Below are positions 1 to 32,000 of a stretch of 32,000 bases of DNA, one piece after another; within the stretch, counting starts at the first letter, position 1, and each line of letters opens with the position of its first letter. The stretch is from NCBI GenBank assembly GCA_000503875.1, contig CP006913.1:1-32000 (forward strand). Reading direction: 5' to 3'. Below the pieces are notes generated by a model, which did not search any database, was not told the DNA's origin, and was given only the letters and a program-made list of their open reading frames with translations. A program made the position numbers and the translations under genes. The stretch is from Candidatus Saccharimonadota bacterium. GTDB taxonomy: Bacteria; Patescibacteriota; Gracilibacteria; Absconditabacterales; Absconditicoccaceae.

Positions 1-1200
1 TTAAACAATATTATTCTTTTTTTCATAATCATCTAATTTTGTAAATAATTTTGTATTAACCCTTCAATTTTCTATAACATATCTAAAATTTTCACCTGTT
101 TTAAAAAAGCTTCATTTTCAAGGATTAATTAAATAATCAACATTATTTCTAATGTCAATTCTCGTTTGTTTATCAAAAGAGTTCCATTTTTCTTTCGGAT
201 ATTTAATATTTATTATATTATCTGTAAAATTTATTAATGCTTTATTTTTTGCAGTAGACATATCTGAGGATATGGCATTGATATTTCCGCTATTGATTTT
301 TTTTGTAGAAAAAACGATTTCTCAATCCTTATTATATTTTATATCATATCAAAAGTTTTTTAATTCATTTTCAAGATTCTTAATTAACTCTGTATTTAAA
401 GATTCGTTAACTTTGTCGGTTTCAACTCTCGGTTCAACATCTTCGGTAACTTTGATATCGTCTCTTTTTGTAACATCTTCGGTAACTTTGATATCGTCTC
501 TTTTTGTAACATCTTCGGTAACTTTGATATCATCTCTTTTTGTAACATCTTCGGTAACTTTGATATCATCTCTTTTTGTAACATCTTCGGTAGTCTTAGG
601 AGTAATAACTTCAGGGGTAACAACTTCAGGAGTAATAGGTTGCGGTGTATTTTTTTCTTCTTTAATCTTGATAACATCTCCAGGGTAAATTAGACCACCA
701 TCTTGTTTGCGTAATTTTCATTTACTATCTTTTCATTCTTTAAATAAATCAAAATTTAAATCTTGGATTTGAGCTAAAGTTATTCATTTTTCTTTTGCTA
801 TTTTTGATAGAGTATCTCATGGTTTTACCGTACATGTTTCAAATTTATTTTCTACAGGTTTTTCTGTATTTTGCGTTACAAAAGGTTTTAGTAAAGCTTG
901 TAGATTTTCTAAAGTTTGCTTATCTTGCTTTTGTTCTTCAGTTAATTCTCAAGTAAATCAGGTTAAGGCACTAGTTACGACAGTATTGAGAGAATTTAAT
1001 TTATCTTTATTATCCTTTCAAAAATCAGTTAAAGCTTTGTTAAAAGCATCATCCAAAATATGAGATAAAGTATCTGCATTATCTTTATTTTGCAAATGCT
1101 CATTTATTTTTTGTAAAGTATTTCAAAAATTTTCTTGTTTCAATTCTTCTTGTTTTAATTCAAATTTTGGTGTTGCTGTTTCCGCCGTATTTCCGCCCAT
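1..1200 (-). CDS. LysM-domain protein with 12-aa tandem repeats (399 aa under code 25)
   Basis: ATG at 1198-1200, TAA at 1-3. The frame is open when TGA=Gly, and I found no in-frame TAA/TAG codon by codon. LysM-like segment: CTVKPGDTLSKIAKEKGITLAQIQDLN...GGLIYPGDVIKI (about 690-830). It is followed by Pro/Thr linkers and (DVTKRDDIKVTE)x4. The N-terminus has no hydrophobic segment. Confidence 0.75.
437..592 (-). repeat. 36-bp perfect tandem repeat, about 4.3 copies, in frame within the LysM gene
   Basis: The unit acatcttcggtaactttgatatcRtctctttttgta repeats head to tail at 437, 473, 509 and 545, with a partial copy at 581. Copies 1-2 differ from 3-4 only at one synonymous position (atcg vs atca). 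It encodes DVTKRDDIKVTE on the minus strand. Confidence 0.9.
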
Positions 1201-1224
1201 TTTAATATCTATAAAAAATAAAAA

Positions 1225-1515
1225 TTACATAGTTTCCAATAATTTGTCTAAATCCGCCAAAGAAATTTTATCTTGTTCTTGTGAAACAGTTTCTGCTGAT
1301 TTAACTTTTTCTAGGTACTCTTTGAGTCACGTAAGTTTTTTCTTTTCTTCTGATTCTTTAGCTTGTTCTAGAGACGTATCAATTGTTTTGATAATGATAT
1401 CCAAAATGGCTTCATCGACCTCCATTTGATTTATGATTATAATCCATGCTCTAGCCAAATCCCAGGTATCTTTCAAAAGTTCAAGTGCCTTAAGTACATA
1501 TGTTTTTTTGTCCAT
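1225..1515 (-). CDS. hypothetical small protein (96 aa)
   Basis: ATG at 1513-1515. The track ORF 1327..1515 continues through one TGA to TAA at 1225-1227. It sits 24 nt upstream of the LysM gene start, so the two are probably co-transcribed. No recognisable family. Confidence 0.6.
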
Positions 1516-1542
1516 GTATCGAATAGTAAGTAAAACATACTA

Positions 1543-1571
1543 AGTATATCCCAAAAAGTGAATTTTGTCAA
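1543..1571 (-). promoter_or_regulatory. sigma70-like promoter for the 1515..1 operon
   Basis: Minus strand reads TTGACA (1571-1566), a 17-nt spacer, then TATACT (1548-1543). It lies 28 nt upstream of the ATG at 1515. Confidence 0.45.
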
Positions 1572-1867
1572 ATTTTAACAAATTCGATAAATCAAATTTT
1601 AATCTCTTTTATAGTAGGTAAAAAAAGTGTGTAAAACCGCTATTTCCTGTTGATTTTTGTAATAATATGCGTAGATATTTAGTATAGAAATAGATGGTAA
1701 AATAAAAAATTTCACAATAAAATGTGAAATATAGAAGAGAGAGTCAAAGGTTTCTTTGATTCTAATACCATAGAAGTATATAATAGAGAAGAGGATTTTT
1801 ATTCTTTTCAAAATATCCAAGGTTTACAGATATGAATGTAGGCCTTTTTTATATTTTCAAAATTCTC

Positions 1868-1896
1868 TTGAAATTTTATTTGAATTTTTTATAAAT
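1868..1896 (+). promoter_or_regulatory. sigma70-like promoter for groES-groEL
   Basis: TTGAAA (1868-1873), a 16-nt spacer, then TATAAA(T) at 1890-1896. It lies about 50 nt upstream of the groES ATG. Confidence 0.45.
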
Positions 1897-1920
1897 AGCA
1901 CGTAAACAACTTTTGTGATA
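1896..1920. promoter_or_regulatory. possible degenerate CIRCE (HrcA) operator
   Basis: TAGCAC (1896-1901), N13, GTGATA (1915-1920). The CIRCE core is TAGCAC-N13-GTGCTA, taken from TTAGCACTC-N9-GAGTGCTAA. The spacing is exact and 11 of 12 core positions match. It sits directly after the -10 element of the groES promoter. The flanking consensus bases are poorly matched. Confidence 0.3.
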
Positions 1921-1945
1921 TTTTTATTTTTTATATGTTTGAACA

Positions 1946-2239
1946 ATGACAAATAAAGCGCAACTTACTCCTTTAGAAGATCATATTTTGATAGAAGCTA
2001 TCGAAGAAGAAAACAAAACAAGATCAGGAATTCTTTTACCTGACAATAAGGAAAAACCAAGCAAATGAAGGGTTGTAGCCGTGGGTAATGGTAAAATTCT
2101 TGATAATGGAAATAGAGCCCCTATTGATGTAAAAGTCTGAGATATCGTTTATTTTACCAAATACGCACCAGATGAATTAGACGTAGATGGAACAAAATAT
2201 TTAGTGATCAAACAATCTTCAATCTTAGCAAAGCAATAA
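1946..2239 (+). CDS. groES: co-chaperonin GroES (97 aa)
   Basis: Translation [55 protein letters not shown]...VKVGDIVYF. Two in-frame TGAs fall at the typical GroES Gly positions (PSKGRV, VKVGD). Ends with TAA. Confidence 0.95.
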
Positions 2240-2264
2240 TACTTTATTATAATATCAATAAACA

Positions 2265-2451: not shown

Positions 2452-4095
2452 ATGGCAAAGACAATACATTATGGCGACGAAGCTCGCAAAAATATTTTCC
2501 AAGGAATCGAAATGGTTGCAAACGCGGTTAAAGTTACTATGGGACCAAAATGAAGAAATGTGATATTGGAAAAATCTTACGGTGCTCCGACTATAACAAA
2601 TGATGGAGTAACGGTTGCCAAAGAAATTGATTTAGAAGATAAAGCACACAATATTGGTGCTTCTATGATCAAGGAAGCAGCTGAAAAAACCAATAAAGAA
2701 GCTGGAGATGGGACGACAACTACTGTTGTTCTTGCACACGCAATGGCAAAAGAAGGACTTAGATATATTAGATCTGGAGTAAATCCATTTGCACTCGGAA
2801 GAGGACTTCATAAGGCAGTTGCTAAACTGATTGAAGATCTTGCAGCAAAAGCAAAACCTATCAAAAATAAAGAAGAAATCAAACAAGTTGCAACTATTTC
2901 TGCTCAAGATGAAGAGGTAGGAAGCTTGATTGCTGAAGTGATGGAAGAAATTGGAAATGAAGGAACAATTACGGTTGAAGAAGGTAAATCAATCGGACTT
3001 ACCAAAGAAATCAAAACAGGAATGCAATTTGACCAAGGATATAGTTCACCTTATTTTGTGACAGATCCTCAAAGAATGGAAGCAATTATTGAAAAGCCAT
3101 ATATTCTGGTTACGGACAAGAAAATATCATCTATCAAAGATATATTACAATTGTTGGAAGCGGTTGCTATGAGCGGTAAAAAAGATTTCGTGATTATTGC
3201 AGAAGATGTAGAAGGAGAGGCATTAGCTTCGCTTGTTCTCAATAAAATCAGAGGTATGCTCAATGTTTTGGCAATCAAGGCTCCAGGGTTTTGAGATCGT
3301 AAAAAAGAAATGCTCAAAGATATTGCTACTGTTACGGGTGCAACATTAATTACTGAAGAACTTGGACTCAAATTGGAAGAAGCTACAATTGATATGCTCG
3401 GTAAAGCAGATAAGGTAATTTCTAGCAAGGACAACACTATTATCGTAGACGGAAAAGGTGAACAAAAAGAAATCCAAGCAAGAGCTGATACTATTAGAGC
3501 ACAATTAGAAAATACGACTTCAGAATACGACAAAGAAAAACTTGCCGAAAGATTAGCAAAACTAGTTGGCGGAGTTGCGGTGATTAAAGTTGGTGCCGCT
3601 ACTGAAATGGAAATGAAGAATAAGAAATACAAAATCGAAGATGCACTCAATGCTACGAGAGCAGCAGTACAAGAAGGAATTGTTGCAGGTGGAGGAGTTG
3701 CTCTGCTCAAGGTTTCAAAGATTTTGGATACCCTCTCATTTGATGATGAAGATGAAAATATTGCGATAGAGATAGTAAAAAATGCTGTCCAATATCCTGT
3801 TATCCAGATCGCAAACAATGCTGGATATAAAGGAGATCGAGTGGTTGAAAAGATCAAAGAAGAAAAAGATTTTAACCATGGTTTTGATGCCAAAACCGGA
3901 GAGTTCAAGGATCTTTTCAAAGCCGGAATAATCGACCCTGCAAAAGTAATCAGAGTTGCTCTGGAAAACGCAGTTTCCACTGCAGCCATGTTCCTCACTA
4001 CTGATGCAGTTATTGTAGATTCTCCAACAAAAGAAGCGCCACATGATCACGCCCCAGCTGGTATGTGAGGAATGGGTTGAATGGATATGTACTAG
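2452..4095 (+). CDS. groEL: chaperonin GroEL (547 aa)
   Basis: Starts [59 protein letters not shown]. Track fragments 2560..3294 and 3310..4068 are in the same frame and are joined by TGA at invariant Gly (APGF-G-DRKKEML). The C-terminal GMGGMGGMDMY has two TGA-encoded Gly. Ends with TAG at 4093-4095. Confidence 0.98.
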
Positions 4096-4139: not shown

Positions 4140-4140
4140 G

Positions 4141-5901
4141 TTAAGATGTTTGTTGTGCTTCTTTTATTGCCCATGTTTTATTATTTAATCTGATTGTAAG
4201 TCATCATCATTTTTCAAAAGTTTTTAAATTTTCTTTGAAATCATTTATTATAATTTTTAATCAAGATAATTTCATATTATGACTATTAAATCTTCAGTTA
4301 TATTGCATCGAGTTCATTCTAACATCACTTGTTAATAACATATAATCCATATTATCGTTTTCTACTCATTTTTCTCTATATAATTTAATACTTTCTTTTA
4401 AGTTATCATAATCTTTATTTAATTGTTTTCTTCAGTTTATTAGTTCATTAGAAAATAATTCTATATGTTTTTTAGTTGTTTCCATATAATCTTTTATCTG
4501 AGATTTATCTTCCTCTGTATATTTATTATTAATTTTAGGATCAGAAATGTTTTTTAAATTATTTTGTAAACCATCAACTTCTTTTTCTAATTTATCCATA
4601 AATTTAATATTATTTATTCCTATTTTTTCGTCTTTATCTAATGAGATTTCAAACTCTTCTATATTTTCATCTTTTTCAAGATCGGCTAATTTAGAATAGC
4701 TATTATTAGAATCTATTTGTTTTTTTGTAAATAAAATTTTCTTTTCGTTAATACTTACAATATGGTTTTTTCAATCGAAAGCAATTTCCTGATTAGCAAC
4801 TAAATTCCCCGCATTATCAAAGTCTACTCTTATCTTTTGGTCTGCTTTTTGGAAAACGAGAGTTATTTTATCATTCTGAGAAAAATCAAATTTACCATTT
4901 CATACGGTTTCATTTCAAAGCATTAAGTTATCCTTGTAGCTAAGAAATTTTTCTATAACAACCGCTGAATCTGGTACAACAACTATTTTATTTTTAGTAC
5001 TTCATTCCTGAGGAATTTCATAAACATTATATTCTTTATCTCCTCTTATAAGTCTAGGATTGGTATAATTTCAATCAAACAAAATAGATACATCATCATT
5101 TCAAACCTTTCATTTTGCAAGAACCTTGTCCCCTGATTTTTCTGTAGAAGTTAGTGTTATTAGACTATTATTATTTCCTGCTACATCATATTTAGTAGTA
5201 ATTGCAGTCAATCTTTCTGTATTTTGCAAGACTTCAGGATTTGTGGTAATTTCTTCTGTGTGTTCTTGAACATCAGGAGTAGTAATAACAGTTGGTACTA
5301 CATTAGTTGACGCTTCTGCAGTTGATACTTCAGTAGTAGTTACCTGAACAGTAGTAGTTACTTCGGCATCAGTAATTACTGGAATTTCTGGGGTTATGCT
5401 TATTGTTGTAGCAGTTGTTGTTCCTTCGAGTTTTTCCAATATTTTAGCAATAGTCAAAGGACCGGCCCAGCCATCTTGTGTTAAATCATTTTTGCTTTGA
5501 AAAGATTTTACCGCTTTTCGTGTATTGCTGTTTTTGTATTGTTCGGGATCTTTTGAGTCTCTATCGTTTTGATTCATATAAACTCCATCAATTATTCCTG
5601 GATTCAAATCTTCATTTCCAGCCGTTTTACTTAATTCTTTCAATGCAATTTGGAGACTCATCACTAATCCTGCTCATTGTTGTTTATAGGATTCTGCATA
5701 TCCAAGATTTTTTGCTTTTGTTAAAACATCCTTCACATTTTCTAGGGTGAGGGTCTCTTCAAGCTTATTATCTTTTATAAGATCTTTCAAATTTATCAAA
5801 TCTGATCTTGTATCTTTATATGCTTTTCCAACTTCTTCTTTTGCCCAATCTCTCATACTATCATGAATATCAATTTGCTTACTAGATAATGTTTCACTCA
5901 T
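4141..5901 (-). CDS. peptidoglycan-binding (PG_binding_1-like) domain protein with Thr-rich linker (586 aa)
   Basis: Track ORFs 5674..5901 and 5110..5664 share a frame and are joined by TGA. The frame stays open (TGA=Gly) down to TAA at 4141-4143, checked codon by codon. PG_binding_1-like motif: NTRKAVKSFQSKNDLTQDGWAGPLTIAKIL. A T/V/E-rich linker follows, then a C-terminal half of about 320 aa that I do not recognise. No N-terminal signal peptide. Confidence 0.7.
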
Positions 5902-6025: not shown

Positions 6026-9000
6026 TTATGCGGCAGGGGTTTGGGTTTCCTCTTGTTCTTCTTGTTCTTGTTTCATCTTAGCTTTTACTGCAAAAACAAC
6101 AACAATACCAATAAATCCTACAACAAGAATTCACAAAACGATAAAGATAATTTTGAGCCAGTTTGTTGATTGTGTCCCTGTTTCCAAAGGAACATTATCT
6201 GGTACAGATTTGATATCTGTTGTACTACAAAGTGAACTTGGAATAGAATAAATATTCATAATAGTACAAATATTTGGAAGTACAATAGTATCCATATCAG
6301 TTTTATCTATTTGTGTATTTGTTGGTGTTGATCAATCCGGAGCAACATTTTTACTAATAACATTAATGATCTTTTGGAGAGATTCTTTTCTCTTGTCTTG
6401 TTGACTAATACCCAAAGAAGCATCACCTACAATAGTTTCAAATTCTTTAAATAAACCATCAACATCTATTGCTAGATTTGTAGGAAGAATAGAGAGAATA
6501 TCTTGTTTTGCAATACCGTATTCTCCAAGTCATTCTGCTGCTGCAGTTGATCTATTAGAAAGTTCCAAAAATATTTTTTTGAGCATATCGTCTTGTTTTT
6601 CATCGAGTTTGATGGTGTTTCTTCCAAGATAATCTTTGAGTGAAACCACTGTCGAAAGAGTTGATGATTTGTCAGAAATATTATCTCTAAGTCCTTTCAA
6701 CATATCTTTGAATACTTTATTCGTTCCTGTAAACCACTCTGGTCCACCAAGTTCTTTTATCAAAACAGTAATTTGATCATATACTTTTTTATCTTCTGCA
6801 TTTAATGCAACTTCAAAATCAATAAATCAGATAGTGAAATCTTCAGAAACCAATTTTTTATTTCTATCTGAATAATAAAGTCTTCATATACTACTATCAT
6901 ATTTAGCTTCGTATTTTTGGAGATACAATTCATTACATTGAGAATCAGCATCATCCAAAGGATTACCATTACCATTACTATCTTCATTGACGTCTATATC
7001 TATATAACAAGGTCCAAGATTTTCGTTATGTTTGATATAAAAAAGAATAGTATTATCCAAATTATTACCTACAAAAAGTTCTATACCACTACTAGTAACT
7101 GTTGCTTCAGGAATAGATAAAAATTCATAATTTTTGGTGCTTGATCAAGTTTCTGTAGTTATGATTAGTCTTTTTTTTGCTTCATTAGCGTGTTGATCAG
7201 CTAAATCAATTGACGCAAAGTATTTTCCTGGTCCAGGATATATATAAGAAAATGCTGATCCTGTAGCTATTGCATTTGCATCAGTACAAGTTTTGGCATC
7301 TGGACAAATTCTTTTTTGTGCAATATCTCCAAGACTTACATCTCTAAATATAACAAAATTTCCCGCTACATCAAAAAGTAATCTTGGTTTTAAACCATTT
7401 CTGACGATAATATTTCCTCCATTAGAAACTCATCTGTATCATCTATAGAGTACAGAAGCTCTTGGTTTAAATCCACTAGTATCACTAGGTTTTGTATAAG
7501 CATATGTTACACGATCTTTTTTTGTTACTAGATCCCAAGTTCAATCTCCATCAAAATCATAATAAAGAGTTCTTTCTTTGACAAAATCTGGTCTGTCAGA
7601 AATCACTTTTGAAACAATATCAAAGGTAACTTCATCTCCAACTTCAACAGCAGAACTACTCATTCTAAGTGTTACCAAAGGTACATCTGGTCTAGATGAA
7701 TCAGGTGGGAAAAAGACGATAGGTCAATTTCCGATAATATCTTGACTAGATTTTTTTCCCTCGTCGTTGTCGTACATCATTACACCAAAAGAGTATTCAC
7801 CAGGAATTTTTGGCAATGAAAAGAATGCATATGGAATATCTCCTGGAGTAATTTTTGTTTCAATAAATCTTGTTGGATCATCTTTGAGATAATAATACCA
7901 TTTATAGTATGATATAAATCAATCAGGATCTATAGAATTGGTCGCACTAACTTTTACAATCAATGGATCAAAATTGCTATTGAAAATATCTCTTACTTGA
8001 TTTTCGTTGAATCCAACGCCAATTTCATTTCCATATTGAGGGAAAAAGAGAACGATATTGTCTAATTTTGGCAAAGAATTTACCACACGAAACCAAATTC
8101 TTGTTACATTATTTTTGCCAATAGAAGTATCTTCAGCAGTCAGATCAACATAGTTACAACCTAGTTCATCGAATTTGTAAGTGAACGTTGTTTGTTTGTA
8201 AATTTCCTTGTTCTTTGGTTGAAAATAAAATTGTAAATCTGATTTTTCTCCTTTTGTATTAACAGATATTAATGGATTAATTACTATTTCTTGATATCTA
8301 TCGATTTGATAAGCGGGGTATTCTGCAATTCCTCAACTTACGGTAAGATCGGCTTCTTTGCAGGCTTCATTTTGGGTAAGGATAATATTTGTTTTATCAT
8401 AAACTTCATAAGCAGCTATTGGATAATCTTTTTCTCCCACAAAAACCGTTTTGATAATTTCATTGTAAGTTTCATTTGCTCCACTTACCTTTAATTTTAC
8501 AATATAAATACCAGTCTTTTTATAAAGGTGGGTAATGGTATCTGCTTGAATAGTTCTTTGATCACCATCAGCAAAATTCCAATCATAAGCAAATATTGGT
8601 TGGTTTGTTGTGACAGTAAATGTCATTGGATTTCCCCATGACATAGCAATAGGCGAAACAGAAATTTCTGGTCTAAGTATAGATTTTATTTCTATATCTT
8701 TTTCCAATTCTCCCATTTTTCCATACTGATCTTTTACAATAAGTTTATATTTAAATTTTCCAATACTGTTAAATTCTGCAACAATTTTTCCATTATTATC
8801 TTCGGTAGAAACAATGTTTACTTTGGCTGCCTCTGGGAAAATCCATTCATAACTCAATGTATCTATACCATTTGTTTTGTCTACATCAGAACTAATAGTT
8901 GCATCAATAAGAAATTTAGAAGGGTTGAGCCATTCACTTGATGGAGTAACAGTAAATTGAGGAATAGGGTCAGTTGATTCTACATATACTTGGATAGTAT

Positions 9001-10282
9001 CAATATTGGTCTGCCCAAGATCGTCTTCGACAGTAAGTTTGATAGTATAGAAGCCAGGTTTTTTAAACTGTTGTTTAATATCTTTGCCTTGATACGTTTC
9101 TAATTTATTTCCGTTTTGATCAAAGATTTCCCAAGTATAAAGTTTTAATGAAGAAACAACAGAATAAGAAGGGCTTCCATCAAAAAGAAATACGGTTGAT
9201 GTTGTTCCATCTTCTGGTTGTTGTTTGATTACCGCAACAGGATCCGATGCAATTAAATCAAATTTTTCTGAAGTAATATTGTTTTCATTATCAGTTACGC
9301 TCAATGAAACCTTATATTCTCATCTTCAAGGAAGAGAAACTCTAATTAAATCTGGTTTGTTTTCGCTAGTTTTGATATATTTAAATCAATCGCTTGAAGT
9401 GATTTGTCGAGTATGAGAAAGGATTTGTCTTCATCCCATAGCAATAGTAGAAGTAGCATCTAATACTACACCTTTTTCAGCTTCCAAGGTTCCAATCTTT
9501 ACTTTACCATTTTTGTCCATTTTTTGTCAGTTAGCATGGACAGAAATAACTGCTGATTTTGGCGCAACATCAATAGATATTGTTTGATCTCCATCCAAAA
9601 TTCCTTTTGCTTTATTGGAGCTTCTTACCGTAAGATGTACAATATAATTTCCTTCCTTTTCAAATGTATACGTAAGGACAGGACCATTTCCTATAATTTG
9701 ATCAATACCATTGATATCTCTATAATACCAGAAAAAATTTCTTGAAGGAATTGTTTCATTTGATGGATCAGTACTTTCTCTTCAATCAAATGTTACAGTC
9801 AAAGGAGCAGCCCCCAATCTTGGTGACGCAGTAGCCTTGGGATAAGCAGTAAATTGTGTATTAATTTTTTTGAGCACATCAGTAAATGGTTTATAACAAT
9901 TTGACATAAATGACGCAAAAAGAGATCTATAATTAGGGTCATTAGAAGAAATTGTTCCCAATTGATTTGCTAATAAAGAACATTGTTGATATGTTACTTT
10001 AAATGAATATTCCTGCGGTAATTTTGGAAAAAGAGCTGTAAAATGTTGATTAAGTTCTTTAAATTTATCTGGATGAATACTATTTCCAAGTTTTGTATAC
10101 GCATCAATTTCCACGAAAATTCCTAGGGTTTTTTCCCAAGAAGTTTTGATTTCATAGTTAGCAATATATTCGTTGGGAACAGCTGCTTTTGTGGTTTCTT
10201 TAAGTGTCAAGAAGGAAATTCCGAGGAGAGAAAAGATTCCCACAAAGAGTATAATTCCAAGATGATGGCGATAGTTCTTCAT
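6026..10282 (-). CDS. giant PKD-repeat cell-surface protein with N-terminal signal/anchor and C-terminal TM anchor (1418 aa)
   Basis: Track ORFs 9782..10282, 8333..9304 and 6530..6763 are all in one frame. I checked every codon between them and found only TGA, no TAA/TAG. N-terminus is MKNYRHHLGIILFVGIFSLLGISFLTL (hydrophobic). Several PKD-like modules are present, e.g. FDGSPSY...YTWEIFDQNGN...GFYTIKLTVEDDLGQT and YDWNFADGD...GIYIVKLKV. C-terminus is WLKIIFIVLGILVVGFIGIVVVFAV followed by KAKMKQEQEEQEETQTPAA, then TAA. Confidence 0.8.
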
Positions 10283-15776: not shown

Positions 15777-15777
15777 A

Positions 15778-22721: not shown

Positions 22722-23714
22722 ATGATTATCCAACCATCTTATCAAACATATCTTGATGCAAAACAACTTCTTCTTCAAGGAGATCTTGTTGCTTTTCCTA
22801 CGGAAACTGTTTATGGACTTGGTGCTAATGCTTTGGATAGATCTGCAGTCAGAAAAATTTTTGAAACCAAAGGCAGACCACAAAAAAATCCTATTATAGT
22901 CCATCTTTGATCTATTACTCAAATTTCCGAATATGCGGAAATAACTAGTCCTTTGGAAGAAAAAATAATCAATACACTTATGCCCGGACCGATAACAATT
23001 CTTCTCAAGAAAAAACCAAATGTACCAGATATTGTCACCGCAGGAAGCGATTTTGTCGGTATCAGAATTCCCAGCAATAAGGTGGCGCTGGATCTTTTAC
23101 AGATTTCTGAGATACCTGTCGCTGCTCCCAGCGCCAACCTCTCAACGAAACCTAGTCCAACTTCCGCACAGATGGTCTTCGATAATTTCCATGAGGCGGT
23201 ACCTATGATTATTGATGGCGGGGATTGTGAAGTGGGTATCGAATCAACGGTGGTTAAAGTCGAATGAAGCCGCGTTGTCATCACAAGACCCGGGTTTATT
23301 ACGGTTGAAGACTTGCAATCGCTTTTCCCTTCCGATGTTCAAGTCGAATATGCTCAGCATATCTCAGAAATAACACCAGGAAATATGTTTAAGCATTATT
23401 CACCCAAATCCAACGTTACTCTTCTCAACAATACAAATCAGATTTCTTTCCCTTTATCGGATGAAAAAACAGCAATCCTTGTTACTCAAGAATGGATTGA
23501 CGACCACAAAGACCGAGGTGACCAGTTCGTGGCGCAAGGTGGTATCGTGTATCTTCGATGAAGTAAATCCGCCTTGATTTCTTGCGCCAAGACCTTATTT
23601 TCTTGGTATCATCAAGCAGATAAAGATCATATTATCCATCTCCTCGTTGAGCCTCTCACAGAGACTGGACTCGGTTATGCAATCATGAATAGAGTCAAAA
23701 AATCTTGTGAGTAA
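22722..23714 (+). CDS. tsaC: L-threonylcarbamoyladenylate synthase, long Sua5-type (330 aa)
   Basis: Contains LVAFPTETVYGLGANALD, KGRPQKNPIIVHL, PGPITILL, VGIRIPS, VAAPSAN and IIDGGDCEVGIESTVVKV, plus a Sua5-type C-terminal domain. Fragments 22722, 22953 and 23313 share one frame and are joined by TGA. Confidence 0.9.
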
Positions 23715-23749: not shown

Positions 23750-24190
23750 ATGAAAAAAATTCCAAGACATTTCCGATGGTTTCTCATACTTATGTTTGGG
23801 TTATTGATTGTAGATCTTGCTACGAAATATTTCTTTTTTGATAGGCAATTAGCCTCAAATATTTTTTTTATTCAACCAATGTTTAATTTAGGCATCTCTT
23901 GGTCAATGCAAGTTCCAGGATTTGTTTCCATATGTGTTGGGCGAATATCTTTGTTGTTATTTATTTTGATTTATCACAAAAAATATATTTCTTGGTGGAT
24001 GGCTGCTTTATTGGTTGCGGGAACCTTGGGAAATATGATAGATAGAATATGGTTAGGGGGAGTGAGAGATTTTTTAACGGTTGGTGTCTGGTTTCCTATA
24101 TTCAACATCGCAGATGTTCTTCTTAATGTATGAATCTTAGCCTATTTTCGAAAAGAATTTTTTACTTGAAAAAACAAACTAAAAGGATAA
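23750..24190 (+). CDS. lspA: lipoprotein signal peptidase II (146 aa)
   Basis: Four hydrophobic segments. Signature motifs [23 protein letters not shown] and [10 protein letters not shown]. It reads through two TGAs to TAA at 24188-24190. Confidence 0.85.
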
Positions 24191-24237: not shown

Positions 24238-24555
24238 ATGAATTACCAAGGAATCGTTAAGTTTATCGGACAAAAGGAGTCAATCGCTGATGGTGTAGAC
24301 AAACAAACAATCGTTTTGGAAGAAAACACAGACAGAGAATTTAAAGGAAGCCTCGCAGTAGATTTCTTCAGAGACAAGATCCAATTATTGGAAAATGTAA
24401 AAGTTGGAGATATGGTTACTGTTCATCTCAATACAAGATGTAATGAATCAAAAAACCAACCAGGAAGATATTTCAACAGTATTACTTGCTGGAGAATAGA
24501 ATCAGGTGCTCAATCAGCTCCTGCTCAAGGATCAAATGATGATTTACCATTCTAA
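24238..24555 (+). CDS. DUF3127-like OB-fold protein with SSB-type C-terminal tip (105 aa)
   Basis: Intact ORF. The pattern G.VKFIG...KQTIVLEE......LAVDFFRDKI.....VKVGD.VTVHLN...NES....YFNSITCWRIE resembles DUF3127 as I remember the family. The tail is SGAQSAPAQGSNDDLPF. Confidence 0.65.
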   Translation: MNYQGIVKFIGQKESIADGVDKQTIVLEENTDREFKGSLAVDFFRDKIQLLENVKVGDMVTVHLNTRCNESKNQPGRYFNSITCWRIESGAQSAPAQGSNDDLPF

Positions 24556-24583: not shown

Positions 24584-24610
24584 AACCTCTTTCGTAGAGG
24601 TTTTTTATTT
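24584..24610 (+). terminator. rho-independent terminator
   Basis: AACCTCT-ttcgt-AGAGGTT followed by a T-run. It lies 29 nt after the DUF3127 stop and overlaps the TAA of the convergent glycosyltransferase gene. Confidence 0.6.
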
Positions 24611-25765
24611 TTGTAAAAAATGTTCCAAACAGAAAATTTTGTTTTTAGAAATTTGATGAGATTTATGAAGAATATCTACAAGAAATGGAGAGGGAACAAG
24701 ATGCTTATCAATAGTAGAAAGTTTTCTTTTTAAAAGATTTAAAGATATAAATTTTCCTACAACAAAAATAGAAGTAGTTATAGCTCTTTGTTTTGCCATA
24801 GATAGGAAACTAAAGAATGTGAGAGGCGTTTTTATCTGTTGTTCATAAAGAAGTTTTTTGGGAAATGGGAAAAAATATCAAAAATCATGGTACATCATCC
24901 ATCTTTCCTTAGCGAAAAAACCACCAACCCAAACGGACATTCGCCCCAATCGTCTCAATGTGCTATTATACCAAATAATATCTGGCTGCCATTTTTTACA
25001 AAATCTCCATAAACGAAAAGCATCAATAAAATTGAATGCTCCCCATCAGATTCCAAAAAGTTTTTTCACGGTTCATTTCCATCATTTTGGTAGTTCTCTT
25101 CATCGGATTTTTACTTCATATCCATGGCTTTCCAATAATTCCTTAACATCATGAATATAGGTTTCAATACCTCCTACTTTATTTATAAAGTCACTTACGA
25201 GCAGTATTTTTTTATGTTTACCAAGCAGAGGATAAATAGTAGTAATCCAATTCTCTTTACTATATTTTTCTAGAGAAATAGTTGGTTTAGTTGTTTTTTT
25301 CTTGGCCGTTAAAAGCTCTGATACACAATTGAATAATTTTTCATCAGTACAAATTCCTTCGTAATTTTCTAAATTATGATCTTCTTCTATAAAAGGTACC
25401 AAGCCTCATTTTTTATATCAGATAACCGGTAATCCTCGAGAAATAGCAGTCAATGCTGTCAATCAAAACGTTTCCAGAAATGTAGATGGCATCAAACAAT
25501 ATTCACAATTTTCTACGTATCTTTGGATTTCTGGTAATTTTTTCCATCCAAAAAAATGAATATTTTTGCTTTCATTAGCCAACTCCAAAAGCTCATTTTC
25601 ATAACTTCCTGCACCAAAAATAAACAAAGAGAATGGTAATTCTCCATTGTGCAAAAACATACGAAGCATTCCCAAAATTGCATCGAATCCTTTTTCTTTT
25701 TCCAATCTTCCAAAATATAAGAATCCTTTCATAATTTGCGTAAAATTTATAAAGTTATTTTCCAT
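24605..25765 (-). CDS. GT-B (GT4/GT1-like) glycosyltransferase with permuted domain order (386 aa)
   Basis: One continuous code-25 ORF, ATG 25763-25765 to TAA 24605-24607, all codons checked. Track ORFs 25463..25765, 25100..25402 and 24605..24799 share this frame. The first half carries C-terminal-domain motifs: FLYFGRLEKEKG, LFIFGAGSYE, LMPSTFLETFGLTALTAISRGLPVI. The second half starts like a GT4 N-terminus: KKILLVSDFINKVGGIETYIHDVKELLESHGYEV...QPDIIWYNS. Confidence 0.7.
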
Positions 25766-26370
25766 AAAATTTTTTTATCATAACTCCTTAATCAAATAGT
25801 ATCTATGATGATTTCTTTCGGTAATTTTGTTTTTATATATTCAATAGCTTCGTTTGCCTTTTGAGGAAGTGTATAATTACAAAGGTTTAAATGGTTTGCT
25901 ATATGGTCTATCATGCCTTTGGTTTGTATATTTTTTTGTTTAATTGTTTTTATGCGTTTAACTAGTTCTTCTGTATCATCGACGTTCAATTGTTTTTGAA
26001 TTAATACAAGCTTTTTTGCCAGTTCCTTTAGAGGTGTTTTTTCAAAAAACAAAGCAATTCGATGAGATCAATTTGGATATTTCTTTTGTAATTTTTTATC
26101 GTTTTTTACTCGATCTTGATATTCATTAACCAAGTTGCTACAAGACAATATAAATGGTTCACAAGATATTTTTTCTTTTCTAATTTTTTGTTGTAACAGA
26201 TTAATTTCTTTCTTTTCTAATAATGTTTGAGTTAATGTAATGTGTATGTCATTTTCATTATTTTTGTTCTCATATCTAAATCAATTCATATACAAATAAT
26301 TCTGAATTTCATTTAATATTTTCAAACTTTTATTTTCTGGTAGTGCTACAATTCGATAGACTTCTTTCAT
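25747..26370 (-). CDS. possible 2H phosphoesterase (LigT-like) family protein (207 aa)
   Basis: ATG at 26368-26370. It reads through TGAs to TAA at 25747-25749 and overlaps the next gene's start by 19 nt. HITL is at residues 43-46. A second, degenerate H-x-N-x motif (HLNL) is at residue 160, with beta-strand-like hydrophobic patterning around both. The family call is tentative. Confidence 0.45.
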
Positions 26371-26382: not shown

Positions 26383-27075
26383 TTATAAACAGGCAGAATT
26401 GTCTTTTTTCCATTCTTCAATTTTTTTCGTATGGCCGCTCAAAAGAATTTCTGGGACTTTATATCACTGTACTGTTTCTGGTCTAGTGTATTGAGGATAT
26501 TCTAGGTTGTTCATATTTGTTTCCACACTATAACTTTCATTTTTCCAACTATCTTCTTCCTTGATGACGTTGGGGATTAATCTCACAATGCTTTCGGTCA
26601 TAGTCATGGCAGGAATTTCACCACCAAGTGTTATAAATTTTCCCAAGGATACTTTTGCAAAATGATTTGGATATCTCTCTGTCATATATTGTTCAAAGCG
26701 AAAATCTATCCCTTCATATCTTGCACACACAAAAATTATATGTTTCATTTTCGCAAATGTATGAGCGTCTTTTTGGCAAAAGATATCTTTACTTGGAGAG
26801 AGAAAAACAATTCTTCGCCTTTTACATCTTTTACTCAGTTTATTTGTTTTGATAACCGATTCAACAGCATCAATTAATGGTTGCGCTTTCATTAATAATC
26901 CAGCTCATCATCCATAAATTTCATCATCAACTTGTTTATGTTTGTCTGGACAAAAATCTCTTGGATTTACACAAGAAAAGGAAAGTATCTTTTTTTTCTG
27001 CGCCTTGGCAATCAATGACGTTGCCAAAAAGCTTTCAAATATTTCTGGAAAAATTGATATATAAGTTATTTTCAT
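26383..27075 (-). CDS. trmD: tRNA (guanine37-N1)-methyltransferase TrmD (230 aa)
   Basis: Starts MKITYISIFPEIFESFLATSLIAKA. Contains VDDEIYGGGAGLLMKAQPL, FVCARYEGIDFR, SLGKFITLGGEIPAMTMTESIVRLIP, EYPQYTRPE and VPEILLSGHTKKIEEW. Track ORF 26464..26892 is extended in both directions through TGA. Confidence 0.92.
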
Positions 27076-27093: not shown

Positions 27094-27720
27094 TTAAAGT
27101 CCTTTAGCAATATACTGAACAACTCTAATTATAGAATAAGAACACACAACGAGAAGCAACCCAATAAATGAATTTTTAAGTCCTGCTTTTGCTTTTGTTG
27201 GATCTTTGCCTGTTGCTCACGCAAATACAAACATTAATCCTGAAACAATAATAGCAATAGTTACAACCGTTCATATAAAGAAGGTAGCAGACAACAAAAT
27301 GTCTTGAACAAATAATTCTGGAGAGCTATTATCAGCTATACTTTTTCTAATACCTAGAAATTCATAGATATTAAAACTACATTGCCCATTAAGAAGACAT
27401 GTTTCATTCATTCTGATTCATTGAACCGCAGCGGCTCCTTTACTTGAAGACATATCACATTTCCAATCTATATAATCTCGTAATCATCCATTTTCTTTAC
27501 ATGTATCTACAAGTTTAACATCTTCATCAGTAATTTCTCTTTTTGTGGCTGTTTCAGTTTTTTTTGAGGCAGCTTCTTTCGCTGCAGAGCTACCCACAAT
27601 TCATGGTATATTATCAAATGTTTCTCAACCATATTCATCTAAATTACCAGCGGCATTAATAAAAGAAAAATTATTTAATAACATTCCTCCCAAAATCAGA
27701 ATTCCAAGTATTTTTTTCAT
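27094..27720 (-). CDS. secreted TrbC/VirB2-like (T4SS-pilin-type) protein (208 aa)
   Basis: Signal peptide MKKILGILILGGMLLNNFSFINA. The middle region has four Cys. The C-terminus has two TM helices flanking a short basic loop: TVVTIAIIVSGLMFVFAGATGKDPTKAKAGLKNSFIGLLLVVCSYSII. That layout is characteristic of the pilin-like family abundant in candidate phyla radiation genomes. All codons checked, ends with TAA. The trmD start is 18 nt downstream. Confidence 0.55.
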
Positions 27721-27849
27721 ATACATATATAAGGTAGAAAAATAAAATCAGATTCTTAAATTCGTTTTTTATACATATTTTATATTTTATTGCAAACAAA
27801 ATCTTTTTCATTAGGTATATAAGGTATCTATTATTTATTATCTAGTATT

Positions 27850-28137
27850 ATGTTCCTCCTCAAAGACAGACTTCGCCAAGTAATAGCGAAAAAACATCTT
27901 ACCAAGAATATGACAGGGGTGATTGCAGTTAATGCAGTTAGAGATCATTTTTGATTTACCAAAAATTCTTTATTACTAGATGGATCATTGAGATTTGATA
28001 TTCTTTTTATTAAGACAACGCAACAACACATCAAGATAAAAATTTTTCAAGAGAAACAGGACCTTCTAGCCAAAGTAAATGCATCACTTCAATCTGTTTG
28101 ATACGATAAAACAATCAAAGATATCCGTACAAAATAA
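27850..28137 (+). CDS. hypothetical small protein, possibly DUF721-like (95 aa)
   Basis: ATG at 27850, two in-frame TGAs, TAA at 28135-28137. The size and pattern (AVNAVRDHFGF...LLLDGSLRFDILFIKTTQQHIKIKIFQEKQDLLAKVNASL) loosely recall DUF721. This assignment is weak. Confidence 0.45.
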
Positions 28138-28247: not shown

Positions 28248-28324
28248 GGGCATATAGCTCAGTTGGTTAGAGCGCGTCTCTGATAAGGACGAGGTCGGTG
28301 GTTCGAGTCCACCTATGCCCACCA
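28248..28324 (+). tRNA. tRNA-Ile (anticodon GAT), CCA encoded
   Basis: Cloverleaf folded by hand. Acceptor GGGCATA/TATGCCC, D arm GCTC..GAGC, anticodon stem CGTCT/GGACG with loop CTGATAA, T arm GGTGG-TTCGAGT-CCACC, discriminator A plus CCA. Confidence 0.9.
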
Positions 28325-28343
28325 ATTATTACGTTAAAGATTA

Positions 28344-28418
28344 GCCAGAGTAGCTCAGTGGTAGAGCAGAGGCCTGAAAAGCCTTGTGTCGGCAGTTCAA
28401 TTCTGCCCTCTGGCACCA
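28344..28418 (+). tRNA. tRNA-Phe (anticodon GAA), CCA encoded
   Basis: Acceptor GCCAGAG/CTCTGGC, anticodon stem GAGGC/GCCTT with loop CTGAAAA, T arm GGCAG-TTCAATT-CTGCC, discriminator A plus CCA. Confidence 0.9.
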
Positions 28419-28428
28419 CTTATTATCT

Positions 28429-28502
28429 CGGGGATTAGCTCAGATGGCTAGAGTGCCTGGTTTGGGACCAGGAGGTCGCGAGTTCGAGTCCCGCATCCCC
28501 GA
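28429..28502 (+). tRNA. tRNA-Pro (anticodon TGG), CCA not encoded
   Basis: Acceptor CGGGGAT/ATCCCCG, anticodon stem CCTGG/CCAGG with loop TTTGGGA, T arm GCGAG-TTCGAGT-CCCGC with one A-C mismatch. The downstream sequence is aaatg, not CCA. Confidence 0.85.
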
Positions 28503-28648
28503 AATGTCTACGTTTGTCTATTGCTGTGATGTTGCTAGTACAATGATCTGCTTGCAGATTAATTACCGGCGAACCACGTTTCGAAAACAATGATGTGCTC
28601 AAAATCAAGGAGCGATCATAGGTTACGAGACAGAACTTTTTTTTACAA
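28503..28648 (+). ncRNA. candidate structured spacer RNA between tRNA-Pro and tuf
   Basis: About 140 nt with clearly higher GC than other intergenic DNA here. The ends can pair (tgtct...agaca). Internal hairpins are at 28543-28562 (tgatctg-cttg-cagatta) and about 28591-28618. It ends in T8 (28637-28644). I recognise no known RNA family. Confidence 0.25.
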
Positions 28649-28729: not shown

Positions 28730-29908
28730 ATGGCAAAATTACACGTAAATGTAGGAACAATTGGTCACGTAGATCATGGTAAAACTACATTAACAGCAGC
28801 TATTACTGCAGTTGCTGCTACAAAAGGTTGGGCAAAATACACTGCTTACGACCAGATTGATAATGCACCTGAAGAAAAAGCAAGAGGAATTACTATCAAC
28901 ACAAGACACGTAGAGTATGAAACTGAAACTAGACATTACGCTCATATTGACTGTCCAGGACATGCCGATTACGTTAAGAACATGATCGTTGGTGCTGCGC
29001 AAATGGATGGAGCTATTCTTGTTGTTGCTGGAACAGATGGTCCTATGCCTCAAACAAGAGAACACATTCTTTTGGCTAAACAAGTTAATGTACCAAAGGT
29101 TGTCGTATTTTTGAATAAATGTGATATGGTTGATGATCCTGATATGTTGGATCTAGTTGAAGAAGAAATTAGAGATTTGTTGAAAAAACAAGGATATGGA
29201 TTGGATACACCAGTACCTATCATTAGAGGATCTGCTCTTAAAGCAGTTGAAAATGCATCTGATACTGAAGGAGCTGCAAAACCTATTTGGGATTTGTTAA
29301 ATGCTCTTGATACTTATATTCCAGTTCCAGTAAGAGATAATGAAAAACCTTTCTTGATGCCAGTAGAAGATGTATTCTCTATTAAAGGTAGAGGAACTGT
29401 TTCTACAGGAAGAATTGAAAGAGGTATTGTAAAAATGAATGATGAAGTTGAAATTCTTGGATTAGGAGCTGAACCAAAGAAAACAGTTATTACTGGAGTA
29501 GAAATGTTCCACAAACAATTTGATACAGCTGAAGCTGGTATGAATGTTGGTCTTCTTCTTAGAGGTATCGACAAAGACCAAGTTGAAAGAGGTCAAGTTC
29601 TTTGTAAACCAGGAACAGTAAAAGCTCACAAAAAATTCGAAGCTGAAGTATACGTATTGAAAAAGGAAGAAGGAGGAAGACATACTCCATTTATGACAGG
29701 ATACAGACCTCAGTTTTTCCTTAGAACAACTGATGTTACTGGAAATATTACATTAAAAGCAGGTATTGAAATGATTATGCCTGGTGATAATGCAAAAATA
29801 GATGTTGAACTTATCTATCCAGTTGCTATGGAAGATGGATTGAGATTTGCAATTAGAGAAGGAGGAAGAACAGTTGGAGCTGGAGTTGTTACAAAAATAG
29901 CTGATTAA
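28730..29908 (+). CDS. tuf: elongation factor Tu (392 aa)
   Basis: Intact ORF even under the standard code. Contains [18 protein letters not shown] and NKCD, and the full-length EF-Tu sequence is recognisable. Ends with TAA. No in-frame TGA. Confidence 0.99.
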
Positions 29909-29922
29909 TTTGTTATTTAGTG

Positions 29923-29949
29923 CCTGGTTCCGCCGTGCGCGGAGCTAGG
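29923..29949 (+). promoter_or_regulatory. GC-rich hairpin between tuf and rpsJ (processing or attenuation element?)
   Basis: CCTGGTTCCGC-cgtgc-GCGGAGCTAGG forms an 11-bp stem with two G-U pairs. It starts 15 nt after the tuf stop. A T-run begins only about 16 nt downstream, so it is not a canonical terminator. Confidence 0.4.
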
Positions 29950-29987
29950 ACCTAAGTATTAAGTTTTTTATTTACTTGTTTGTTGAT

Positions 29988-30335
29988 ATGTTAGAGAAAC
30001 AAAAAGCAGTTAAGGCCAAAAAAGACACGAAGGCAAAATTGAGAATCAAATTGAAAAGTTATGATGCAAAGATGTTGGAGTCTTCTGTTTGAAAAGTTGT
30101 TGGTTTGCTTATTAAATCATGAGCAGAAATTAAAGGACCAATACCTTTGCCAAAAAAAAGAAAATTGTATACAGTTTTGAGAGCAAACTTTAAACATAAA
30201 GATTCTAGAGAACAATTTGAAAGAATTACTTATGCTAGAATGATAGATGTTGTAGAAACGGGTTCTAAAACTATGGAATATCTCCAAAATTTAGCAATAC
30301 CTGTTGGTGTTATGGTTGATGTAAAGGTTTTCTAA
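29988..30335 (+). CDS. rpsJ: 30S ribosomal protein S10 (115 aa)
   Basis: Translation MLEKQKAVKAKKDTKAKLRIKLKSYDAKMLESSV-G-KVVGLLIKS-G-AEIKGPIPLPKKRKLYTVLRANFKHKDSREQFE...MIDV. Two in-frame TGA codons read as Gly. Ends with TAA. Confidence 0.95.
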
Positions 30336-30375
30336 TCAAGATGTTTCTTTTTTAATTTAATGAATAATCGTACTA

Positions 30376-30978
30376 ATGAATAAAGGAGGATTAGTGGTAA
30401 AAAAACAAGAAATGACCAGGGTTTGGGTAGAAGATAAATTTGTCCCAGTAACTATAGTAAAAGTTGTGCCACAAGAAATTGTAAGATATAAAACAGCTGA
30501 AAAAGATGGATATGCCGCAGTAGTTGTTGGTGTAGATAAAAAGGAAAAAGAAGCTAAAAAATGAAAAAAAATAGTTTACAAAGATACTATTGAATTCAAA
30601 ATAGATTCTGATTATGAACAAAATAATCAGGTCGGTAAAGTTTTTGATGTAGATATGGTACAAGGAATTGAATCTGTTGATGTAATGGGAATATCAAAGG
30701 GTAAAGGATTTCAAGGTATGGTAAAAAGATGTAACATAAAAGGAATGCCTGCAACCCATGGTCATAAATTCACAAGAACTTGAGGTTCAAAAGGAAATAG
30801 AAAACCAAGAAGAACACTTAAAGGACATCCACATGCTGGACATATGTGAGTAGATCGCGTTACACTAAAAGATATTAAAATTCTTGATATCGTAAAAGCA
30901 AATGGCGAACAACTTATTGCTCTAAAATGATCATTACCAGGAGCATATAATGGACTATTAAAAATTACACTAAACTAA
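30376..30978 (+). CDS. rplC: 50S ribosomal protein L3 (200 aa)
   Basis: Translation MNKGGLVVKKQEMTRVWVEDKFVPVTIVKV...GISKGKGFQGMVKR...ATHGHKFTRT-GG-SKGNRKPRR...GHMG. Several in-frame TGA codons read as Gly. TAA at 30976-30978. Confidence 0.95.
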
Positions 30979-31019
30979 TTATTACCCCAAATTAATTCTT
31001 AATTCTTAATTTATATAAC

Positions 31020-31649
31020 ATGGTATATTCTGTAGATATATATGATAAAAAATGAAAAGTTGTTTCGACTGTAGATCTTAACGAAGATATTTTTGCAGAC
31101 GGAAATGTAAATGAATCTTTGATTCATGAATATGTTATTTTGCAAGCAAGTAATGCTCGTCATAATATTGCTTGTACAAAATGAAGATGAGAAATCGCAT
31201 GATCTGGAAGAAAAATATTTAAGCAAAAAGGAACAGGAAACGCAAGGGCTGGAGATAGAAATTCCCCAGTAAGAAAATGAGGATGAGTTGCTTTTGGGCC
31301 TAGATGAGAAAGAAATTTTGAAAAGGCTATGAATAAAAAAGCAAGAAGAAATGCATTGATGGGTATTATTACCTTGAAAGCAAAGGATAAAGCTCTTTTG
31401 GGATTAAAAGATTTCGATCTTACTGAGCCAAAAACTAAAGATCTTCTTGATATAGTAAAAAATATTGGAATAGAAGGAAAGAAAGCATTATTTGTCTTGG
31501 GAAGTAAAAATCAAAATATTGAAAAATCCTTGAGAAATATTGCAAATGTAAAATACATTACCGTAGGATATCTCAATCCCTTGGATGTGATGTCTGCTAG
31601 TAAAGTAGTATTCTTTGAAACAGCTTTACAAGCAATTAATTCAAAATAG
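31020..31649 (+). CDS. rplD: 50S ribosomal protein L4 (209 aa)
   Basis: Translation MVYSVDIYDKK-G-KVV...[48 protein letters not shown]. Seven TGAs fall in the first ~100 codons, at positions that are Gly in L4 proteins. Ends with TAG. Confidence 0.95.
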
Positions 31650-31674
31650 TTTATTTGATCTTACGAAAATAAGC

Positions 31675-32000
31675 ATGGTATTCACGCAAAAATTACAACA
31701 AAGAGCTAAAAAGAACGTTGAGAATAAAATAGTAAAAAAATTCTCAATCTATGATGTTATTTTGGCTCCTATAGTAACAGAAAAAACCTACAAATTTCAT
31801 GATACTGCAAACAAATATTGTTTTAAAGTGCACAAAGGTGCTAATAAAAACGATGTAAAAGCAGCTATCCAATATTTGTATAAGGTTACTCCTGAATCTG
31901 TTAACATCGTAAATGTTGTTTCTAAAAACAGAACTCAGAGAGGATTGGTTAGAAAAGCTTACAAAAAAGCTGTAATTACTTTGTCTAAAAAAGACAAAAT
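31675..32000 (+). CDS. rplW: 50S ribosomal protein L23 (3' partial at window end)
   Basis: ATG at 31675. Contains ...YDVILAPIVTEKTYKF...KYCFKVHKGANKNDVKAAIQYLYKV.V.SVNIVNV..K........G..RKAYKKAVITL. It follows rplD in the canonical S10-operon order. Confidence 0.9.
   Translation, partial: MVFTQKLQQRAKKNVENKIVKKFSIYDVILAPIVTEKTYKFHDTANKYCFKVHKGANKNDVKAAIQYLYKVTPESVNIVNVVSKNRTQRGLVRKAYKKAVITLSKKDK

Follow-up and report, generated by a model that had tools for sequence, protein, structure and literature searches.

UGA is read as glycine, and CGA probably as tryptophan, in a 32-kb stretch of the RAAC1_SR1_1 chromosome

Among described variants of the genetic code, the closest to the one considered here is that of the candidate division SR1 (Absconditabacteria), in which UGA specifies glycine (NCBI translation table 25). 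Kantor et al. (2013, mBio, PMC3812714) reported this use of UGA for the genome RAAC1_SR1_1, together with a tRNA-UCA gene that hardly differs from its counterparts in other SR1 genomes, and they noted that Prodigal selected code 4 on these scaffolds. The Gracilibacteria (BD1-5), the sister lineage within the Patescibacteria, use UGA for glycine in the same way (Rinke et al. 2013; Hanke et al. 2014, PMC4032931). From an analysis of six species with Codetta, Shulgina and Eddy (2021, eLife, PMC8629427) predicted that CGA and CGG have been reassigned to tryptophan in Absconditabacteria, and our literature search found no experimental confirmation of the change of CGA to tryptophan. We analysed the first 32,000 nucleotides of contig CP006913.1 (hereafter the window), which have a GC content of 30.8% and are interrupted by in-frame TGA codons when read with the standard code. 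The best explanation of the data as a whole, to which we assign a probability of about 0.96, is that the window is chromosomal DNA of RAAC1_SR1_1 in which UGA is an ordinary glycine codon and only UAA and UAG terminate translation. In addition, CGA in the same genes probably encodes tryptophan.

EF-Tu, GroEL translated with table 25 and L4 were identical to the GenBank entries AHB40843.1, AHB40823.1 and AHB40846.1 of candidate division SR1 bacterium RAAC1_SR1_1, which supports the SR1 assignment proposed in an earlier note on this DNA. The exact EF-Tu sequence also occurs on a sediment-metagenome contig in ENA and in GCA_003543185.1, and both equal the window across 13,271 overlapping bases. 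The nearest EF-Tu proteins from other genomes belong to metagenome-assembled genomes (MAGs) of Absconditicoccaceae (85% identity) and Absconditabacterales (78%), with all others at or below 73%; together with the identity to RAAC1_SR1_1 proteins, these relatives place the window in the Absconditabacteria/Gracilibacteria group to which table 25 applies. Three translations of the same DNA are in public use. The code-11 calls of GCA_003543185.1 are fragmented (for example, a 106-residue piece of L4 labelled Patescibacteria or Gracilibacteria), the ENA/Logan gene calls read TGA as tryptophan and hold a GroEL with tryptophan at all four TGA sites, and the GenBank RAAC1 entries read TGA as glycine. 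Because Kantor et al. described the reassignment for this very genome, our finding for UGA is a rediscovery, in line with the remark in the earlier note that the recoding was already known; its value lies in annotation, not in discovery.

Open reading frames (ORFs) of at least 100 amino acids, measured from stop to stop, totalled 7,191 amino acids with table 11 and 19,218 amino acids when only TAA and TAG were treated as stops. The longest ORF grew from 394 to 1,428 codons once TGA was a sense codon, and freeing TAG or TAA in place of TGA gave no similar gain in the window. Gene models built with TAA and TAG as the sole stops comprised 27 complete genes and one partial gene (rplW) and made 91.9% of the window coding. 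Within these models, TGA occurred in frame 158 times and TAA and TAG not once; the +1 and +2 frames were rich in TAA and TAG (289/440 and 246/155). The complete genes terminated at TAA (24) or at TAG (groEL, der and rplD) and never at TGA, and 17 more genes of the same contig likewise end at TAA or TAG. The earlier note had counted 28 complete models, 25 of them ending at TAA; our recount corrects both figures, leaves the three TAG genes as named and agrees that no gene requires TGA as a stop. Re-translation recovered exactly the fused ORFs of 1418, 1045, 868 and 586 amino acids that it had listed. Its statement that every conserved gene is broken by TGA went too far, as TGA is absent from tuf (392 codons), from the DUF3127 gene and from a 106-residue ORF.

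To assign an amino acid to TGA, we compared the raw DNA of orthologues rather than annotators' translations, so that those translations could not make the test circular. An extension of the contig (L081) supplied the remainder of the S10-spc ribosomal operon, and among the 80 genomes whose tuf surroundings we retrieved, approximately 16–18 use the standard code and carry this operon. TGA codons were scored only if at least eight standard-code orthologues were available, which gave 48 columns. The mean glycine content of these columns was 66%, compared with 78% in GGN columns of the same genes and with backgrounds of 8.4% for glycine and 0.7% for tryptophan, and 26 of the 48 were at least 80% glycine. 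Summed log-likelihood ratios at the 48 columns were +67.2 for glycine, −80.3 for alanine and −120.9 for tryptophan. None of the TGA columns had a tryptophan majority, whereas TGG columns of the same genes were 46% tryptophan. As a control of the method, every codon sampled at least five times returned its standard amino acid, and TGA alone was singled out, as glycine. UGA is thus a sense codon for glycine, and not for tryptophan, in this window, as the earlier note had argued.

Within the window, rpsJ (S10; 29988..30335, plus strand, stop TAA) has TGA at 30090-30092 and 30120-30122; the column of residue 45 (aa45) was glycine in 16 of 18 standard-code genomes and that of aa35 was variable. In rplC (L3; 30376..30978, plus strand, stop TAA), which has TGA codons starting at 30562, 30781, 30847 and 30928, aa158 and aa185 were glycine in 16 of 16 genomes, and aa63 and aa136 fell on proline, alanine or histidine columns. 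The earlier note had placed seven TGA codons in about 100 codons of rplD (L4; 31020..31649, plus strand, stop TAG), and we found seven, spanning codons 12–96 (first bases 31053, 31182, 31188, 31200, 31278, 31284 and 31305). Glycine was present at aa87 and aa89 in 15 of 16 standard-code genomes, at aa61 in 10 of 16 and at aa12 in 6 of 9; aa55, aa57 and aa96 were variable.

For the non-ribosomal genes, TGA columns were read from alignments to solved structures in the PDB. All four TGA sites of GroEL (547 residues; 2452..4095, plus strand, stop TAG), at 2551-2553, 3292-3294, 4066-4068 and 4078-4080, fell on glycine. Of these, aa34 (GPK-G-RNV) and aa281 (APGF-G-DR) were glycine in all three chains aligned, and the C-terminal GM-G-GMG-G-MDMY aligned with MGGMGGM of 1iok. 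These four positions and 21234-21236 in der had been given as in-frame TGA codons in the earlier note, and each is correct, although the first GroEL context, quoted there as TLGPK, reads VTMGPK-G-RNV. Both TGA sites of GroES (1946..2239, plus strand, stop TAA; 2066-2068, aa41, and 2138-2140, aa65) lay on glycine in the chains aligned, with the exception of one serine at aa65. The three sites of TrmD (230 residues; 26383..27075, minus strand, stop TAA, one CGA), at 26908-26910, 26905-26907 and 26464-26466, were on glycine in the four chains aligned, in the YG-GG-xG motif and at aa204. LspA (146 residues; 23750..24190, plus strand, stop TAA) has TGA at 24131-24133 and 24167-24169; its one alignable site, aa128, was glycine in three chains (6ryo, 9emz and 5dir). 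Sua5 (sua5/tsaC, 330 residues; 22722..23714, plus strand, stop TAA, three TGA and two CGA codons) gave approximately one site in three, aa280 being glycine in one structure only and the remaining TGA columns being mostly alanine or variable. Taking the structures together with S10, L3 and L4, approximately 19 of 35 alignable in-window TGA sites had glycine-majority columns and none had a tryptophan column. In the orthologue alignments that the earlier note had proposed as a check (GroEL, Frr, L3, L4 and Der), TGA columns did not align mainly with tryptophan.

Several observations weigh against the glycine reading. Approximately half of the TGA sites fall on variable or non-glycine columns. Only one of five sites in Frr (frr, 183 residues; 10505..11056, plus strand, stop TAA; TGA first bases 10571, 10583, 10598, 10637 and 10859) was mainly glycine (aa27, LQM-G-RASA), the other four being serine, asparagine, threonine or alanine columns. 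None of the three sites of Der (der, also engA, 491 residues; 21225..22700, plus strand, stop TAG; TGA 21234-21236, 21690-21692 and 21909-21911) was on glycine: aa4 was alanine in all four chains aligned and the other two were variable. The single TGA of YidC (263 residues; 11089..11880, plus strand, stop TAA; 11371-11373, aa95) fell on an asparagine column (NP motif) in chains of E. coli-type YidC and YidC2. Outside the window, the TGA at aa80 of L14 (L081:16698-16700) aligned with aspartate in 16 of 16 standard-code genomes, which suggests that this lineage replaced a residue that is invariant elsewhere. On the side of the machinery, a search for tRNA(UCA) that covered the window, 8 kb of additional contig and the fetched SR1 and Gracilibacteria loci found none, and neither prfA nor prfB was present in the window or in 22 related loci of the clade. 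A mixture of glycine and non-glycine columns is nevertheless the ordinary behaviour of a glycine codon, because GGN columns themselves reach just 78% glycine. The claim that TGA codons sit on near-invariant glycines therefore stands for approximately half of the sites and not for the remainder. Among the sites that the earlier note had named, Der 21234-21236 (alanine), L3 aa136 in TRT-GG-SKG (proline or histidine), Frr aa45 in SY-GG-S (alanine or threonine) and L4 aa96 (variable) are not glycine positions in orthologues. At the L14 site, we also observed a GGN codon in one SR1 relative (L001) and glutamate in another (L002).

Consistent with synonymy between UGA and GGN, TGA codons of the window paired with TGA (148), GGA (51), GGT (35) and GGG (13) in 22 loci of other SR1-type genomes. 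TGA makes up 26.6% of glycine codons in the window and from 6% (L002, 38% GC) to 67–73% (L001, at 29% GC, L093 and L095) in the relatives, a spread that illustrates how a captured stop codon gains use after reassignment. Loci of lower GC content tended to have a higher TGA share. Usage also differed between genes of the window. TGA accounts for 0 of 37 glycine codons in EF-Tu (tuf, 392 residues; 28730..29908, plus strand, stop TAA; P = 1e-5 given the 26.6% share), 4 of 47 in GroEL, 1 of 21 in YidC, 13 of 20 in a LysM protein and 25 of 55 in a 1045-residue protein, and 40–65% of glycine codons in large lineage-specific proteins are TGA. The EF-Tu of L001 carries 17 TGA codons, so the avoidance of TGA in EF-Tu is not general in the clade.

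We also found that CGA departs from its standard meaning. The genes of the window contain 32 CGA codons (33 per 10,000 codons) and no CGG. In the SR1 relatives, window CGA codons were matched by CGA (44), TGG (21), TAT (9) and CGG (1), and no arginine codon was among the twelve commonest partners listed. Conversely, TGG codons of the window paired with CGA 33 times and with CGG six times, so that CGA or CGG of the relatives faced window TGG 39 times, compared with twice for AGA; for CGG, six of nine aligned codons were opposite TGG. Counted by site, a CGA or CGG was present in a relative at 20 of 61 TGG sites and at 1 of 307 arginine sites (Fisher p = 2e-16), and of the 18 CGA sites of the window at which relatives aligned, 10 showed TGG or CGG in a relative and none an arginine codon. 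CGA and TGG thus behave as synonyms in this comparison, as in the code predicted by Shulgina and Eddy (2021). Over 11 instances of CGA in the relatives, the log-likelihood was +18.3 for tryptophan and −8.6 for arginine, and L002 has CGA on two columns of S3 that are tryptophan in 16 of 16 standard-code genomes.

Individual sites showed the same pattern. The CGA of Frr (aa68, 10706-10708) aligned with Tyr, Tyr, Trp, Tyr and Phe in solved ribosome recycling factors. In the MFS transporter (460 residues; 17018..18400, minus strand, nine TGA codons, stop TAA), the CGA sites aa178 and aa202 (17867-17869 and 17795-17797) were TGG in both aligning relatives; a reading of aa178 ('NS-R-G') as a genuine conserved arginine was dropped for this reason. 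Four CGA sites of a glycosyltransferase (386 residues; 24605..25765, minus strand, eight TGA codons, stop TAA; CGA first bases 25436, 25103, 24950 and 24941), at aa110, aa221, aa272 and aa275, were TGG in at least two relatives each. The CGA sites of Der (21420-21422 and 21582-21584) were CGA, CGG, TGG or TAT, and never an arginine codon, in up to 18 relatives. The three CGA sites of LspA fall within hydrophobic stretches. The codon substitutions support the Codetta prediction independently and suggest that, in all likelihood, CGA is synonymous with UGG as a tryptophan codon in this genome. A code with three changes (UGA to glycine, CGA to tryptophan and CGG to tryptophan, the last seen only in relatives) is favoured with the same good confidence.

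The tRNA genes of the relatives are consistent with this assignment. In seven related SR1-type metagenome loci (L092–L095, L097, L100 and L101), we found a tRNA(UCG) that has A1:U72 and G73 and lacks A20, features that make it look like a tryptophan-type and not an arginine-type acceptor. It is located a few kilobases upstream of der (L092:6069-6142, L095:1382-1455 and L093:7794-7866, all on the minus strand), and the 3' CCA is encoded in L092 and L095. The window itself has no tRNA(UCG), a scan with Rfam at the gathering threshold having returned three tRNAs only, for Ile, Phe and Pro. In the decoding scheme that we propose, a dedicated tRNA-Gly(UCA), charged by glycyl-tRNA synthetase, would decode UGA, as publications on this genome and its lineage suggest, and a tRNA(UCG) with tryptophan identity would very probably read CGA as tryptophan. 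Campbell and colleagues reportedly described, in PNAS in 2013, the glycine meaning of UGA in SR1 and the loss of release factor 2 (RF2). Without RF2, release factor 1 (RF1) alone would read UAA and UAG.

Other meanings of UGA account less well for these data. If UGA encoded tryptophan, as in translation table 4 of the Mycoplasmatales and several insect endosymbionts, the identical long ORFs would be restored, and gene callers did pick code 4 for this DNA. That reading is extremely improbable, however: tryptophan is the majority residue in 0 of 48 TGA columns, its score is −121 against +67 for glycine, and columns of genuine TGG codons in the same genes reach 46% tryptophan. Moreover, it would lift tryptophan to 2.4% of residues, compared with 0.8% from TGG alone, and relatives pair TGA with GGN and not with TGG. 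A standard code in which the TGA breaks arise from pseudogenes or from errors of sequencing or assembly is the treatment implied by the code-11 annotation of GCA_003543185.1, an NCBI MAG record whose gene calls on the same DNA are broken, as in the L4 fragment. This explanation is vanishingly improbable, given that the interruptions are always TGA (158) and never TAA or TAG, that the essential genes groEL, frr, rplC, rplD, der and trmD would all be broken, and that independent assemblies agree base for base where they overlap, with TGA or GGN at the same positions in other SR1 genomes. UGA might instead have a dual, context-dependent meaning, being glycine within genes and a stop at some gene ends, or being partially read through with RF2 retained, and a sample of just 27 complete genes leaves some room for this. 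Such a dual meaning is very improbable, because the conserved proteins finish at their expected lengths at the first TAA or TAG (GroEL 547, GroES 97, Frr 183, EF-Tu 392 and Der 491 residues); no gene terminates at TGA, and up to seven TGA codons within 85 codons of L4 would be very costly were a release factor competing for them. Selenocysteine at TGA was rejected without a dedicated test, the 158 sites being aligned with glycine and not cysteine and occurring in all classes of genes.

With UGA read as glycine, the remaining alternative is that table 25 is complete and CGA still encodes arginine, as in the GenBank annotation, where AHB40823.1 renders GroEL aa463 (3838-3840) as arginine. A few CGA sites do pair with lysine or glutamate codons in relatives (Sua5 aa265 and TrmD aa87), and the change of CGA to tryptophan is so far a computational prediction only. 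Two aspects of our own data also temper the tryptophan assignment: the CGA pair counts were drawn from related, non-independent genomes, and standard-code orthologues give thin evidence at the CGA sites of the window, Frr aa68 being aromatic and GroEL aa463 valine; outside the window, the CGA at aa63 of L6 lies on a tryptophan or histidine column. We nonetheless consider arginine unlikely, as 10 of the 18 aligned CGA sites of the window meet TGG or CGG in relatives and none meets an arginine codon, the CGA and CGG codons of the relatives face TGG far more often than AGA, CGA of the relatives occupies invariant tryptophan columns of S3, and the tRNA(UCG) genes of the relatives lack arginine identity and have tryptophan identity. 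Because CGA codons behave as tryptophan, our working code is table 25 with CGA changed to tryptophan, rather than table 25 alone; CGA appears to be the exception to the rule of table 25 that every codon apart from UGA means what it does in table 11. The view of the earlier note that the UGA recoding decides every other call in the window holds as far as TGA is glycine, and the 32 CGA codons need the further change.

The remaining features of the window were as follows. Pfam searches recognized GroES, GroEL, Frr, YidC, Der, Sua5, LspA, DUF3127, a glycosyltransferase, TrmD, an MFS transporter, EF-Tu, S10, L3, L4 and L23, as well as surface proteins with LysM, peptidoglycan-binding and PKD domains. 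The window opens with a LysM-domain repeat protein (399 residues; 1..1200, minus strand, stop TAA), the one with 13 TGA codons, inside which a 36-bp tandem repeat (4.4 copies, 99% identity, at 436-592) codes for TEDVTKRDDIKV repeats. A hypothetical protein of 96 residues follows (1225..1515, minus strand, one TGA, stop TAA). The largest gap of the window is a 430-bp non-coding stretch (1516-1945) located 5' of groES; with up to three mismatches permitted, we found no match to CIRCE, the HrcA operator, upstream of groES or anywhere in the window. Downstream of groEL, the minus strand encodes a peptidoglycan-binding-domain protein (586 residues; 4141..5901, 15 TGA codons, one CGA at 5518-5520, stop TAA) and a PKD-domain surface protein (1418 residues; 6026..10282, 18 TGA codons, one CGA, stop TAA).

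Between yidC and the MFS transporter, four hypothetical genes lie on the minus strand, all ending at TAA. The 1045-residue protein (11938..15075) has 25 TGA and five CGA codons, and a gene whose longest model has 269 residues (15102..15911) has one of each. This model overlaps the upstream 106-residue gene (15778..16098, no TGA) by 134 nt, and the true start is probably an internal downstream ATG near 15776 (MKKEATTL...). The last of the four encodes 266 residues (16101..16901, two TGA codons, one CGA). On the plus strand, an 868-residue hypothetical protein (18540..21146, 19 TGA codons, three CGA codons, stop TAA) precedes der, and the DUF3127 gene (105 residues; 24238..24555, no TGA, stop TAA) follows lspA. 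In the glycosyltransferase, the order of the GT-B domains is reversed, with Glycos_transf_1 (aa15-130) preceding Glyco_transf_4 (aa197-268). The 386-residue layout aligns collinearly, over almost its whole length, with relatives L083, L085 and L087 (52–78% identity), which argues for a conserved permuted or fused architecture and not for an assembly artefact. Two further genes on the minus strand flank trmD: a hypothetical gene of 207 residues (25747..26370, three TGA and three CGA codons, stop TAA) and a hypothetical membrane or secreted protein of 210 residues (27094..27726, six TGA codons, one CGA, stop TAA). The weakest model is a hypothetical gene of 95 residues (27850..28137, plus strand, two TGA codons, stop TAA), with which a minus-strand ORF at 27831-28031 competes. 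The genes for tRNA-Ile(GAU), tRNA-Phe(GAA) and tRNA-Pro(UGG) occupy 28248..28503 on the plus strand, upstream of tuf, and rplW (L23; 31675..32000, plus strand, no TGA) is truncated by the end of the window.

Every downstream reading of the window hinges on TGA being glycine, and its 32 CGA codons are best treated as probable tryptophan. If this is true, the table-25 annotation of RAAC1_SR1_1 has arginine in place of tryptophan at 32 positions of the window, GroEL aa463 and Frr aa68 among them, which is 29% of its tryptophan codons. To our knowledge, no NCBI translation table encodes CGA as tryptophan.

Compared with the SR1 system of Kantor et al. (2013, PMC3812714), the window represents the same organism and shows the same reassignment, low GC content and termination at TAA and TAG only. 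With respect to the published annotation of RAAC1_SR1_1, it agrees on UGA, and the present data argue against the annotation of CGA as arginine. The Gracilibacteria share the glycine meaning of UGA, and the EF-Tu proteins of the Gracilibacteria loci L027 and L069 are just 68–69% identical to that of the window, no closer than those of unrelated phyla. The Absconditabacteria code predicted by Codetta (PMC8629427) resembles what we observed in the rarity of CGA, in its interchange with TGG and in its tryptophan or aromatic columns, and the tRNA(UCG) features that Shulgina and Eddy took as criteria, G73 and the absence of A20, are seen in the relatives. The prediction covers both CGA and CGG, whereas the genes of the window are without CGG, so CGA alone can be assessed here. 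Lineages that use table 4 (Mycoplasmatales, Entomoplasmatales and insect endosymbionts) are alike in having a sense UGA, a small AT-rich genome and predominantly UAA stops. They differ in that UGA encodes tryptophan there and glycine here, where decoding would depend on an extra tRNA-Gly(UCA), as described by Kantor et al. (2013, PMC3812714), and not on a modified tRNA-Trp.

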